Below are positions 11,276 through 18,691 of a DNA stretch of 64,000 nucleotides, piece by piece (within the stretch, counting starts at the first letter, position 1; every line of letters starts with the position of its first letter). Under the pieces are notes generated by a model. That model did not search any database and was not told the origin of the DNA. It worked only from the letters and a program-made list of their open reading frames with translations. The DNA is from Candidatus Moraniibacteriota bacterium. GTDB taxonomy: Bacteria > Patescibacteriota > Minisyncoccia > Moranbacterales > UBA1568. A program made the position numbers and the translations under genes. The DNA lies in contig JAAXXG010000005.1 in NCBI GenBank assembly GCA_013334575.1, positions 3,080 through 67,079 of the forward strand. The letters are read 5' to 3'.

Positions 11276-11629
11276 CTAAGCCTTCGCGCAGGATATGCAC
11301 TCCTTTGCGGCCGGATACGCTCGGAGACGACCCTCCTCGATTTCCTGACCGCATTCGGCACAGATACCATAGGTCCCGGCCTCGATTCGTCCAAGCGCTT
11401 CCTTCACCTCGTTAAGCTGACTTTCCAGATTCTCCTCGAGCGCCACGTTATCGGAGTACTGTTCGACCTCGGTCGCGTTATCATCCCGGTCCGTGCCGAT
11501 ATCCTCGTATCGAGCCTCGTACTCGCCGTCTTTCTTGTCCGCAAACAAGCCGAGTTCGGATTCGAGCCGACTCTTCGAGGCGAGCAATGCCGCCTTCATC
11601 TCCTCGCGGAACGCTTCGGTCATGGTCAT
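11276..11629 (-). CDS. TraR/DksA C4 zinc-finger protein
   Basis: Coiled coil with DRDDNA (DxxDxA), GTYGICAECG...RLRAYPAAKECISC. Confidence 0.92.
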   Translation of the reverse strand: MTMTEAFREEMKAALLASKSRLESELGLFADKKDGEYEARYEDIGTDRDDNATEVEQYSDNVALEENLESQLNEVKEALGRIEAGTYGICAECGQEIEEGRLRAYPAAKECISCAKA

Positions 11630-11714
11630 ATCGTTGCAATTTCCGGTTACGAGGTCATTGTACGCCCCAAAATCCCCGAAGTAAAGCCACATGAAAACAC
11701 CGGGGCCGGAGCGA

Positions 11715-12113
11715 TCAGATGAATATCCCTTCGAAATGTCTGATATTCGGATCCTTCTCCCCGACCCGAAAGACGATCAGAACGGCATCGAAACGGTATG
11801 ATACATCCCGCTTCCCTCGTTCCCGGAGATACTCCTCGGCGACCCTGGCCAATTTCCTAAGTTTCGAAGGCGTAATCGCCTCCTCGGGAAAGACCTCTTC
11901 CACCGAGGCATCGGCAATACGAGCCTTCACTTCCACGAAGACGATTCCCCTATCGTCCGAAGCGACGATATCGACTTCGCCCACCGCTTTCCCCCGCCCG
12001 TTACGATAGTTCCGTTCCAGTATACGGTACCCCTTTGAACGCAGATATCGGGCGGCCGCATCCTCGCCGCGCCTACCGGTCTCGTCCCGAAGGTGGAATC
12101 TCCGCGTCATCAT
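11715..12113 (-). CDS. yraN: YraN family (UPF0102) nuclease-like protein
   Basis: GRRGEDAAARYLRSKGYRILERNY, GEVDIVA, FVEVKAR, RFDAV. Confidence 0.95.
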   Translation of the reverse strand: MMTRRFHLRDETGRRGEDAAARYLRSKGYRILERNYRNGRGKAVGEVDIVASDDRGIVFVEVKARIADASVEEVFPEEAITPSKLRKLARVAEEYLRERGKRDVSYRFDAVLIVFRVGEKDPNIRHFEGIFI

Positions 12114-12149
12114 ATTGGCATGATATCCCGTTCAGGCATTCCAGCCAAC

Positions 12150-12171
12150 AAAAAAACGCCCTCTCAGGCAT
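12150..12171 (-). terminator. Intrinsic terminator ending the candidate large RNA
   Basis: Minus strand ATGCCT-GAGA-GGGCGT (GNRA loop, G-U pairs) followed by a T-tract. Confidence 0.7.
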
Positions 12172-12747
12172 CCGCTTACCGCACCCGCCGCTTCCGTCTC
12201 CGCCCGACAGCCCTCCGTATGGATATTGTTGGGTTGTCGGGCGCCAGGCCCGTAGTCCAAATAAATAAATATATGACTGGAGCACCGACGCCCGACCGCA
12301 TGTCCCAACACGCGATCCTGCGATATAACCCTTCGGGTGATGAGGGTATCTATCGTCAATAAAGACCTCGTGTAGTTTGTGGATATGCTTTTCCCTTTTG
12401 CCGTCTTGTCTGACTTTTCGACAGCTTTTTTCTTTCACCGTTCTCTGGCGCTTGGCCTTTGGAGTAAAAAGAACGGATTTTCCCTTTTTGTTTTTGTATA
12501 AACGCGCCGAGTATTTATTGTTTCGGCGTTGTTTATGTTTGTTTTGGGTCCCCGTGTCAGATCCGGGGCGACGGAAGAGGGATCTCGTACTCGCGGAACG
12601 GAACGTGAGCGGTCCGCGTGCCGATCCGCGAGTACAAGGAACTTCCATACTTGAACAGTGAAAGAGGTCTCAGCCACAAACAGGGGGAGTATCGTGGCTG
12701 AAACTTCTTTCCCCGTTCACTCGTTCTCGGGTTTTCAACGTACTTAC
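12150..12747 (-). ncRNA. Candidate large (~600 nt) structured non-coding RNA of unknown family
   Basis: No credible ORF; sigma70 promoter upstream and terminator downstream; at least 8 stem-loops separated by A-rich linkers. Confidence 0.65.
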
Positions 12748-12753
12748 AGGTCC

Positions 12754-12782
12754 ATTATAGCATGCGAAACGACGAGGGTCAA
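12754..12782 (-). promoter_or_regulatory. sigma70-type promoter TTGACC-N17-TATAAT
   Basis: Reverse complement of 12754-12782 reads TTGACC CTCGTCGTTTCGCATGC TATAAT. Confidence 0.8.
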
Positions 12783-12916
12783 TCGTAACATGCATTCCAC
12801 TCAGCATTCATCGGGAATTTCGGACACTCGCACGATCATGAACGGAAGTCTGCCGGTTCATGTCCGAAAAAGAAGTCGCCCACTTTCTTTTCGTTCCCCG
12901 TTCAAGCCGTTTTCCG

Positions 12917-13987
12917 TCACTTCTGTATCGCACGACCGAGCACGGCGCGGAACGAATCCTTGCTCGTTCCGACGACAAGACGATCGCCGAGAAGCATGTA
13001 GTCGAACGAAAGATCCGAATCGGACGAGATGATAGCGAAGCGGGTCTTCGACGCGCCGAAAGATCCGTCGCGAAACGCCGCCTGCGACGGAACGTTCGTA
13101 TCTGCCGTATACAGGACCGGAGCGAATGCCGACGGCATAGCCGATTCGGTCTCCGGCGCCTCGGAAAGAAGGATGTTCCGCATCGCCTCCTTATCCTTTA
13201 CGGAAAGAGCCAATGCGCGACGGACACCGCCGGCCTCCGGAATCATATAGACGGAAAACGATTCATCCAGATCGGACAGCACGGTCTCCGGCACCTTAAG
13301 GCCGAGCAGATAGGCGAATCGCGAGAACGCGATAGGGTTGTTATCCGTATCGCGGACGAGGAATTCCACGGGAACGAGCGGAGACATGGAAGAAACTCCC
13401 GTGGCCGCCTTGTCCAATACCGACAGTATCGCCTCACGTGACGACGACTCCGTGTCGATATTGAGGTAGTTCGGCTTTGATGCGGAGTATGTTCCGGCAT
13501 CTTCGACCCCGAGGTCTCCCGACCGAGTCGGAGAAACGGCCTGCTCCGCTACATTTCCCGCTTCCCGGACGTCGGCATTCCGATTCGTCATATACGCGAA
13601 TGCCGCCACACCGAGCACCGCCAGGGCGACCAGGGCCCCGATCAGTCGCAGGTTCTCACGCTTCGGAACGAACATCGAAAGAGAGGAAAGAAATGCGAGA
13701 GGATTCGTCTTCTCGCCGCCTTTTGACCGATTTCCGGAAACGGATGCCGGCGCAACGGCTCCATCCGCCGAAGCATCCGCGCCAAGAAACGGATTCCCGG
13801 CAAGAGCCGAACCGCCGCGTGCCGCGCTCACATCGTCATGATCCGACTCCTTCGAGGTCTTCCCCTTGCCGGAAAGCTCGTCGAGATCATCCTGCATCAC
13901 GCGAACATGACGAAGATCCTCGACCGGAACCGCATTCGGATCATCCTGATGGCTGTGCTTATCGAAAATCTCCTTAAGATCGCTCAT
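12917..13987 (-). CDS. Hypothetical single-pass membrane protein
   Basis: 356 aa; disordered acidic N-terminus, one TM (LIGALVALAVLGVAAFAYM), extracytoplasmic domain. Confidence 0.75.
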   Translation of the reverse strand: MSDLKEIFDKHSHQDDPNAVPVEDLRHVRVMQDDLDELSGKGKTSKESDHDDVSAARGGSALAGNPFLGADASADGAVAPASVSGNRSKGGEKTNPLAFLSSLSMFVPKRENLRLIGALVALAVLGVAAFAYMTNRNADVREAGNVAEQAVSPTRSGDLGVEDAGTYSASKPNYLNIDTESSSREAILSVLDKAATGVSSMSPLVPVEFLVRDTDNNPIAFSRFAYLLGLKVPETVLSDLDESFSVYMIPEAGGVRRALALSVKDKEAMRNILLSEAPETESAMPSAFAPVLYTADTNVPSQAAFRDGSFGASKTRFAIISSDSDLSFDYMLLGDRLVVGTSKDSFRAVLGRAIQK

Positions 13988-17578: not shown

Positions 17579-17902
17579 TTAGTCAGTCATTTCGATTGTC
17601 TTTTCAGATTTTGTTTCATGAACCTTCTTCCAAAAATATACCATAAAACCGACTAAAACTACTGTGAACAGAGAAAAGCAAATCGCGCTAAACAACAACG
17701 CCCCCTCAGCAGGCTCCGGCAGACTCAAATAGGCCGTCCAAAAACTAACGGCTGTTGATAAGCAAATTGAAGCGAGACCAGAAAATATTTCATATGACCT
17801 CAAATCATTTCCTTGAACAAGCTCAATGCGCATGATCGAAGGCATGCCCACTTTGATGACCGGGTGGCAATTCACTGAATGTATTGCGACCTTGCTTTTC
17901 AT
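17579..17902 (-). CDS. Low-GC hypothetical protein with two TM helices
   Basis: 107 aa, two hydrophobic segments; AT-rich island. Confidence 0.7.
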   Translation of the reverse strand: MKSKVAIHSVNCHPVIKVGMPSIMRIELVQGNDLRSYEIFSGLASICLSTAVSFWTAYLSLPEPAEGALLFSAICFSLFTVVLVGFMVYFWKKVHETKSEKTIEMTD

Positions 17903-17923
17903 AGAAACCGTTTTTTCACTACA

Positions 17924-18691
17924 TTATTCAGAAGATTCCGAACAGTACTTTTCCGAGAAAACCTTGATTTCAGATCGTAAGTCCTTCAAGGCACCATCCA
18001 AAATTGCCTCATCAACGGACTCTGATTTCGGGATTACTAGTCTTACTCCGCCCTTGAAGACGAACTCGTGGTACCTTTCCATAGAGACAATCTCCTTCAC
18101 GGATTCAGAAGGGGTCTCGTTTTCAGTAGCAAAATTTCCCAGCTTCTCAGACTCGACAGGGCCTTGAATGTCTGAGTCTAACTCAGTAACCTCATCAGGA
18201 TTTATAACTATGTCATTCTTAAGTAATCCAGAATAAATCAAGGATTCTCGAAACGTCTCCGAGGCCTCCTTAGCAACACTTGGGGTTATCTTCTCTCGAA
18301 TGAAAATATTGTCTAGCATGGCAGGAAGCGCCTGATTTTGAAACCGCTCAATGAAATTCATGTAGAGCTTGGGCGTCTTTATTGCCTGAATTATGGCCAA
18401 CCGCTTCTCAGACTCATTTATCGGATTAAGAATGTGACGTGCTAGTTCGCTCTGGTTATACGCATTTCCAGTACGATCGAGTAATCCATAGTGAACTAAC
18501 GCTGCAACCTTTCTGGCAGCTGGACCTGATAGCCGGTCGTGTCCAATTCCGCGAGCAACCATATCTCTAGAATATGGTCCCTTTCCGAGCTCTCTCGAAA
18601 GCTTCCCCGAAAGTTCAATAGCCTTCTCCAGAGTCAAGGATGGGTATGCAACGCTGCGACTCCTTACTTTTGACATAATTGCTTCTTCCAT
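17924..18691 (-). CDS. Low-GC hypothetical protein, probable N-terminal winged-HTH
   Basis: YPSLTLEKAIEL...SRDMVARGIG...AARKVAALVHYGLLDRTGNAY resembles a wHTH; 255 aa. Confidence 0.75.
   Translation of the reverse strand: MEEAIMSKVRSRSVAYPSLTLEKAIELSGKLSRELGKGPYSRDMVARGIGHDRLSGPAARKVAALVHYGLLDRTGNAYNQSELARHILNPINESEKRLAIIQAIKTPKLYMNFIERFQNQALPAMLDNIFIREKITPSVAKEASETFRESLIYSGLLKNDIVINPDEVTELDSDIQGPVESEKLGNFATENETPSESVKEIVSMERYHEFVFKGGVRLVIPKSESVDEAILDGALKDLRSEIKVFSEKYCSESSE

Follow-up and report, generated by a model that had tools for sequence, protein, structure and literature searches.

We found that the minus strand of the window (the whole stretch of DNA analyzed, 64,000 nt of contig JAAXXG010000005.1 from a Moranbacterales genome) almost certainly carries a non-coding RNA gene, in which two competing helices are predicted to share one strand, and which has relatives in several Patescibacteria lineages. 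The RNA apparently represents an undescribed family of large bacterial RNA, new in family and in fold, and its function may still prove to be of a known kind. The first-pass annotation, made from this single sequence, had called a large, structured, stand-alone RNA that was possibly restricted to CPR bacteria. Homologues with compensatory changes were found, and in the searches made they came from Patescibacteria only.

Locus and non-coding character

The gene and its surroundings are as follows.

12917-13987 (-): upstream neighbor, a 356-aa protein with a hydrophobic segment, without Pfam match and DUF3352-like by lead only
12873-12886 (no strand): palindromic operator-like motif upstream of the promoter, at the place of a DnaA box in other lineages
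12754-12782 (-): promoter, sigma-70-type with extended -10, TTGACC-17-TATAAT
12150-12747 (-): RNA gene, about 598 nt, with the start put 7 nt past the -10 box
12731-12743 (-): 5' boxA-like motif, by likeness to rRNA leader motifs
12150-12171 (-): intrinsic terminator (to 12173 as hairpin plus T-tract), by sequence and as a conserved end in relatives
11276-12113 (-): downstream neighbors, as context: yraN (UPF0102) at 11715-12113 and a DksA/TraR zinc-finger gene at 11276-11692

The promoter and terminator named at first pass are both in place: TTGACC-N17-TATAAT at 12782-12754 has 11 of 12 consensus matches and TG ahead of the -10 box, and a hairpin with its T-tract occupies 12173-12150. Among 117 loci of the order Moranbacterales, a promoter pattern stands at the equivalent place in 115 and a terminator-like end (hairpin plus T5) in 99. 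The RNA in these loci measures 399-779 nt (median 525), with ends that were set automatically and are too long or too short in some cases. Further upstream are rpsO, an NYN-domain gene and pnp, followed by the gene of the 356-aa protein; after yraN and the DksA/TraR gene come lspA and a Mg-chelatase-like ATPase gene. The dnaA gene lies ∼40 kb from the locus in a host genome of 1.13 Mb (99% complete). Elsewhere in the window (17579-18691, minus strand), two ORFs (107 and 255 aa) located between rpsO and gyrA look unlike their neighbors.

The 356-aa gene is directly upstream of the RNA in 109/117 order loci and is probably context, not a dedicated RNA partner. The latter role is unsupported, as the gene is class-wide (122/151 class genomes) and is replaced in other classes. 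In the atlas, the protein is surrounded by hypothetical proteins of Minisyncoccota, and DUF3352 is no more than a weak lead; at locus L407 the gene in the equivalent upstream place matches DUF3352. The upstream position is often taken, in other classes, by a gene with a DinG-type helicase C-terminal domain (PF13307), sometimes as a weak match; such genes were seen at eight of the loci scanned (L401, L402, L403, L410, L422, L450, L453, and L456).

The palindrome at 12873-12886 is possibly the operator of some regulator. It recurs by a loose pattern in at least 28 of the 62 loci in the host's family, and a strict pattern has one further occurrence in the host genome, on contig C7. A consensus-based DnaA-box pattern was present within 330 bp upstream of the RNA in 33/55 order loci outside the host's family and in 11/20 other-lineage loci, against a background across loci of 0.06 per 330 bp; DnaA boxes were found in none of the 62 loci of the host's family.

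For the 601-nt minus strand, the computed folding energy is -233.7 kcal/mol, compared with -181.6 ± 7.0 in 20 shuffles (z = -7.45). ORFs of 75-191 aa overlap the RNA region. In close relatives they are broken by stops and frameshifts without a conserved frame, which agrees with the first-pass view that the transcript has no credible ORF, and only 294 of the 1740 indels in a 62-sequence family alignment are multiples of three. The novelty of the RNA was checked against Rfam, and no family of Rfam 15, a collection that covers ROOL, GOLLD, OLE, raiA, HEARO, introns and riboswitches, was found for it. At gathering score, the only families in the window are 10 tRNAs; a scan of positions 12000-13000 gave short hairpin families (best E 0.16). 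A scan of 45 related loci with Rfam 15 (20 from the order, 5 from the class, and 20 more, 19 of them from other classes) yielded no family match; all that appeared were one tRNA and isolated hairpin matches below threshold.

The hallmarks of tmRNA, RNase P RNA and rRNA, reported missing at first pass, are indeed missing, and all three genes lie elsewhere in the genome. The host tmRNA is on contig C7, ARAGORN detects none here even at lowered threshold, and the T-loop pattern occurs in 0/117 order loci. The host RNase P RNA is on contig C2 (RF00010, 102.3 bits), and the CR-I motif is present in 0/117. The 16S and 23S rRNA genes are on contigs C19 and C11. The RNase P RNAs of CPR bacteria can be diverged, according to the accessible text of PMC8172020. 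SRP RNA was also rejected, with no Rfam match here; the SRP M-domain (PF02978) has no match in the host genome at its 99% completeness. For a T-box or riboswitch leader, the scans gave no Rfam match, and the downstream genes vary.

Conserved structure and competing helices

The structure was examined in 44 of the 117 order sequences, picked for diversity and ordinary architecture. Across its 54 pairs, 92.6% of 2366 cells are paired, a level reached by 0 of 500 shuffles, and slid partners gave 37-40%; the pairs had been assigned by eye on these same sequences and the relatives are not independent, so the figures are not probabilities. When mutual information was calculated without any model, true pairs, the long-range pair 88-312 among them, already headed the list. 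Compensatory changes were found in 42 of the 54 pairs among the 44 homologues, and the RNA call made at first pass is strengthened by them. The elements of the structure in the window are listed below.

12707-12718 (-): strand A, pairing with strand B in the early fold; 87.3% paired, 8/12 pairs compensated
12670-12701 (-): P1 upper hairpin, with a C-rich loop at 12681-12689; 91.4% paired, 8/9 pairs compensated
12653-12664 (-): strand B, with A or C as partner
12587-12636 (-): inserted hairpin, in the host genome only among those aligned
12550-12568 (-): P3 hairpin, 94.1% paired; its loop (12556-12560) supplies the 5' side of kissing loop PK1
12529-12545 (-): A-rich linker 1 of the AAAAYAAAAAYAAA type, unpaired; the best phylum-wide sequence mark
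12505-12528 (-): P4, a variable hairpin, absent or extended in relatives
12478-12496 (-): A-rich linker 2; two linkers are present in 89/117 loci
12468-12474 (-): internal boxA-like GTTCTTT, nearly invariant, able to pair with the start of strand C
12432-12443 (-): strand C, long-range partner of B; 92.8% paired, 8/12 pairs compensated
12410-12414 (-): 3' half of PK1, in the loop of P6, by covariation
12298-12388 (-): P7/P8 multi-helix domain; P7 (12382-12388/12298-12304) is 84.3% paired
12369-12373 with 12308-12312 (-): P8, 99.5% paired
12237-12295 (-): P9, a GC-rich stem with a small bulge, a short upper stem and an AU-rich loop

Strand B can pair upstream with strand A or, 220 nt downstream, with strand C, and strands A and C, which nearly repeat each other, vary in concert with B. 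Because the A:B and B:C helices both covary on the shared strand, the RNA is predicted to have two coupled states, and we concluded from the alignment that the competing helices are a conserved folding switch. The two duplexes have similar computed energies (mean -16.0 for A:B vs -16.7 for B:C), B:C being the stronger in 26/44 sequences. When A is paired with B, the beginning of C is able to form a helix with the GTTCTTT tract (294/308 cells paired, 0 both-side changes). For the host genome the early fold is lower in computed energy (-233.7 vs -222.8, with the kissing loop left out). The kissing loop PK1, formed by the P3 and P6 loops, is paired in 219/220 cells, with 5/5 pairs compensated. 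Both the kissing loop and the strand switch are features that a single-sequence reading could not see and that comparison of relatives reveals.

The helices listed at first pass all occur in the minimum-energy fold, but not all of them describe the family: 12584-12638 is an insertion found in the host genome only (13 aligned homologues), and the base of the first hairpin and the 12438-12476 helix, although predicted, belong to just one of the two alternative folds. The doubled CAAAA(A)GGGAAAA (12478-12490 and 12389-12400) singled out earlier is unconserved; the conserved sequence is instead the linker AAAAYAAAAAYAAA, present in 111/117 order loci and in two copies in 89/117.

P9 (93.2% paired, 6/8 pairs compensated) is the structure common to all relatives found. 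The P7/P8 domain ends in the conserved loop TCACCCG (12334-12340), with CACCC in 115/117 order loci. The P1 loop CCCCCT is present in 83/117 and lost in 34/117, and it is also seen in another class (L408, L419, L421, L458, and L453). Sequence conservation is mainly in unpaired or non-covarying parts, i.e., the linkers, the two loops and the internal boxA-like tract; as these are conserved though unpaired, the pattern is that expected for binding sites. In the most diverged family of the order (L158-L160, L480, and L481) the CACCC loop motif is duplicated, which suggests that the single-stranded sequence itself may be recognized. A second pseudoknot, between 12305-12309 and 12228-12233, is uncertain: it is kept in the host's family, and order-wide 174/215 cells are paired.

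Distribution in Moranbacterales and other Patescibacteria

BLAST-type searches detected the RNA in 13 of 41 relatives and in 79 of 107 genomes of the host's family. Covariance model R1, which covers the 3' core of the RNA and was built from one family, found it in 121/151 order genomes and in all 12 families, with one copy per genome apart from reverse-strand echoes of a hairpin. The weakest family gave 3/20 with R1 and 9/22 with a P9 model, as diverged copies; seven extra copies in this family carry the linker and loops. An exact 17-base loop pattern matched at least 120 stretches in the named genome collection. Among the 80 stretches listed, 54 match R1 and 21 are chance matches; by title, 29 are Moranbacteria or Moraniibacteriota and 10 are Patescibacteria or Parcubacteria group. 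The same upstream gene accompanies the RNA in 53 of the 54 R1-matching stretches, so other taxon labels on such stretches were read as wrong or the contigs as misbinned. A 3-kb contig labeled archaeal (L216) has the full RNA and the upstream gene, and is probably misbinned.

Outside the order, R1 matched 0/145 class genomes. This null reflects the sensitivity limit of the model, since shorter relatives were later found by synteny and P9 models. The regions downstream of the 356-aa gene were read in 62 class genomes outside the order, and ∼17 promoter-to-terminator units of ∼110-430 nt were found there, with the P9 hairpin, a boxA-like tract in 14/17, the DnaA-box pattern in 16/17 and the linker in only 1/17; many other class genomes are without any gap at that place. 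We are less sure that these short forms are homologous to the RNA, as this would rest on P9 and position. Two loci of another order found with an order-only profile (L197 and L208) have the promoter, strand B, linker, strand C, and P9. Another order also has a ∼430-nt promoter-to-terminator unit without clear P9 upstream of a dksA-like gene (L201:605-1100, minus strand; folding z only -1.74 for the part tested). Class matches L380, L386, L388-L396, and L398 of model R2 looked on reading like chance and were left uncounted.

Two short P9 models matched 24/151 and 34/151 phylum genomes, with 5/14 in one small class; P9 model R3 was partly trained on the first P9-model matches and missed the window's own copy, which marks the sensitivity of the short models as low. 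Many families in the phylum sample had no match, several of them at 0/4 to 0/6 with the short P9 model, a weak model; phylum matches L404, L416, L423, and L459 looked on reading like chance and were left uncounted. The 34 matches outside the class were read, and 30 of them (30 genomes, 16 families) have an A-rich linker upstream, compared with 27/202 background windows. In these relatives the parts come in the same order, and strand B has a second possible partner. Of 22 testable cases, 11 had a complement for the kissing loop in which the letters differ, and an internal boxA-like tract near the linker was seen in only 12/34 matches. The order-only profile also matched 5' parts (L408, E 6e-11; L419, 2e-9; L458, 2e-8; L421, 6e-8), with no match on shuffled controls. 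Relatives in other lineages shrink to 270-480 nt. From the linker, the part order and the profile matches outside the class, we concluded that the RNA family spans at least three Patescibacteria classes and, on present data, should not be called universal. The earlier reading underestimated this range, as the RNA appears order-wide with relatives in other classes.

Possible role of the RNA

The 5' motif resembles 16S/23S leader motifs of the host genome and of four other Patescibacteria genomes, and this likeness to the rRNA leaders of the same bacteria supports the first-pass reading of a BoxA-like start. GYTCTTTAANA is given as the gamma-proteobacterial boxA consensus in the accessible text of PMC5725501; compared with it, the 5' motif has ≤2 mismatches in 68/117 order loci and ≤1 mismatch in only 13/117, and the internal tract has ≤1 mismatch in 73/117. 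NusB is encoded in the host genome. The RNA may be made as an rRNA-type, boxA-dependent transcript with putative NusB/NusE sites. Like a pre-rRNA leader, as far as the available sources describe one, it has a strong promoter, boxA-like motifs, local leader helices and a long-range domain-closing helix; unlike a leader, it has no rRNA inside, and the 16S and 23S genes are on other contigs. In rRNA, boxA and leader-trailer helices guide folding (PMC10250234, in the portion consulted). The host 16S and 23S genes seem unlinked (contigs C19 and C11; loci L035 and L037), with a terminator-like hairpin behind the 16S gene, and with its own promoter and a long structured leader for the 23S gene. The unlinked arrangement has been described for CPR (PMC8172020, available portion). 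Separately, rRNA genes longer than the models were seen in L425, L426, L431, and L432 (16S of 1660 and 1582 nt; 23S of 3819 and 5438 nt), which likely contain insertions or introns.

Our preferred reading, held tentatively, is that a stable RNA, produced by a NusB/NusE-bearing complex, acts as scaffold or decoy by exposing unpaired tracts rich in A and in C, with strand exchange during its formation. Synthesis would start at the strong promoter by an rRNA-type complex with NusB/NusE on boxA. The early local fold would pair A with B and the internal boxA-like tract with C. Strand exchange would then form B:C, with the kissing loop between P3 and P6 as a lock; binding of NusB/NusE or some other protein to the internal boxA tract is a plausible trigger. 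In the resulting fold a ring would be closed, and the unpaired A-rich repeats, the C-rich loops and P9 would be displayed as binding sites. The most likely job of the RNA would be to act, in a stable ribonucleoprotein, as scaffold or decoy for transcription or translation proteins that bind single-stranded RNA. In many lineages, the DnaA box upstream would link synthesis to the state of replication. No gene tracking the RNA was found among the neighbors of the order, class and other-class loci. The nearest analogue in genomic behavior is the raiA motif RNA, likewise a widespread orphan structured RNA gene with a fixed neighborhood and probably not cis-acting (PMC5737381, accessible text); it differs in phylum, size and fold.

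An RNA-only multimer or cage like ROOL or GOLLD, in which the kissing loop, strands A, B, and C, and the A-rich tracts would bridge copies, seems unlikely, though its size, kissing loop, long-range helices and A-rich tracts all fit. By the accessible portions of the sources, ROOL averages 581 nt (PMC5737381, PMC12286853), the covarying kissing loops of ROOL/GOLLD proved to be intermolecular bridges (PMC12286853), and these RNAs share with ours the large, multi-junction, pseudoknotted architecture. However, ROOL/GOLLD are described there in prophages and phages near tRNAs with an unconserved linker (PMC12286853, PMC5737381), whereas the new RNA is chromosomal, syntenic, single-copy and not phage- or tRNA-linked, and the linker is its most conserved sequence. 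It also has boxA-like motifs, a covarying strand switch, no Rfam match and much smaller relatives. Three exact-match pattern scans of viral collections gave 22, 9, and 1 stretches, read as chance matches since none extended beyond the pattern; distant copies could escape such scans. OLE RNA resembles the new RNA in its ∼600 nt, its own promoter and terminator and its position beside the gene of a membrane-anchored protein. Unlike the OLE case, there is no Rfam match, and the neighboring membrane protein is without Pfam match, class-wide and replaced in other classes; OLE was rejected as no dedicated OapA-type membrane partner lies beside the RNA.

We consider it improbable that the RNA is a ribozyme or another catalytic or processing RNA reaching its active fold by strand exchange. 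The complex conserved core, the pseudoknot, the multi-helix junctions and the single copy would suit such an RNA, but few positions are invariant phylum-wide and the P7/P8 domain differs considerably from class to class; hallmark patterns of RNase P and of group II introns occur in 0/117 and 3/117 loci, and there is no Rfam ribozyme match. About equally improbable is a trans-acting regulator that pairs by its C-rich loops with ribosome-binding sites or rRNA. Staphylococcal RNAs use C-rich loops for such pairing, and the two conserved loops here (83/117 and 115/117) resemble halves of the 16S 3' tail. Yet their G-rich complements are not enriched before the starts of 802 genes in the host genome (AGGGG, 12 vs 14; GGGTG-R, 4 vs 6), one genome that keeps the same loop lacks the best 16S match, located near position 253 (L427/L408), and the P1 loop is lost in those 34 loci.

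A cis-acting leader or attenuator for yraN-dksA-lspA, with the switch as regulator, appears still more doubtful. It would account for the two-state fold and for the yraN or dksA-like gene that, in most loci, follows the RNA on the same strand. The switch, however, is ∼250 nt from the terminator with no visible anti-terminator, the downstream genes vary in identity, distance and strand (opposite-strand in L158-L160, L171, and L403), and yraN has its own promoter-like site (a weak match ahead of the yraN/DksA genes at 12148-12120).

A highly diverged 6S RNA acting as RNA-polymerase decoy is very unlikely. 6S RNA is a ∼180-nt rod with a central bubble, found as one per genome. The long-range helix, the strand switch and the lack of a 6S match in the host genome would speak for it; against it, the new RNA is branched, pseudoknotted and 500-600 nt long, recognizable 6S genes occur in 21/151 phylum genomes (5 above the Rfam cut-off, L460-L464), and genome G451 holds a 6S match (E 6e-6) together with this RNA on another contig. 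We give hardly any weight to a reverse-transcriptase template, with the A-rich repeat copied as in a retron, a DRT or telomerase. The ring closed by the long-range helix holds an unpaired 6-nt repeat, and the host genome has one RT, but RTs are patchy (72/151 order genomes, with 0 to 8 copies each), no RT is present in ten near-complete genomes of the family that do carry the RNA, the complementary DNA repeat is absent from the host genome, and no RT is among the annotated neighbors. The host RT itself is a stand-alone 443-aa protein (L334:1060-2391, contig C2). Finally, a protein-coding gene, or DNA palindromes without RNA function, would draw on the overlapping ORFs and can practically be dismissed, refuted by the stops and frameshifts in relatives and by the G-U-tolerant, strand-specific covariation and the kissing loop.

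The literature covered, including 2026 genome-language-model preprints (10.64898/2026.10.21.760802, 2026.09.15.751765, and 2026.09.22.753630; main texts, and few subscription journals), contains no description of this RNA that we could find. In the reduced genomes of these tiny, host-dependent bacteria, about half of the usual ribosome biogenesis factors remain (PMC12641178, accessible text). Genomes of ∼0.6-1.3 Mb that have shed much machinery still retain this single-copy RNA over at least three classes, and such retention points to a basic function. As a single copy in most order genomes, it behaves as a housekeeping gene, and being kept as such in many Patescibacteria lineages, it probably has a basic job in the cell. 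The comparison brings RNAs that had been noticed separately in single lineages together as one family sharing a core and names positions to mutate, and the fold lends itself to in vitro tests that need no culture of the organism. To our knowledge, large structured bacterial RNAs are few, and every solved case brought new biochemistry. It is conceivable, if far from assured, that this is a housekeeping RNA class that, by its single copy, strong promoter and vertical inheritance across classes, behaves in genomes like tmRNA, RNase P RNA or 6S RNA, and whose Nus-driven switch and DnaA-linked transcription would couple gene expression to replication or dormancy by new biochemistry.
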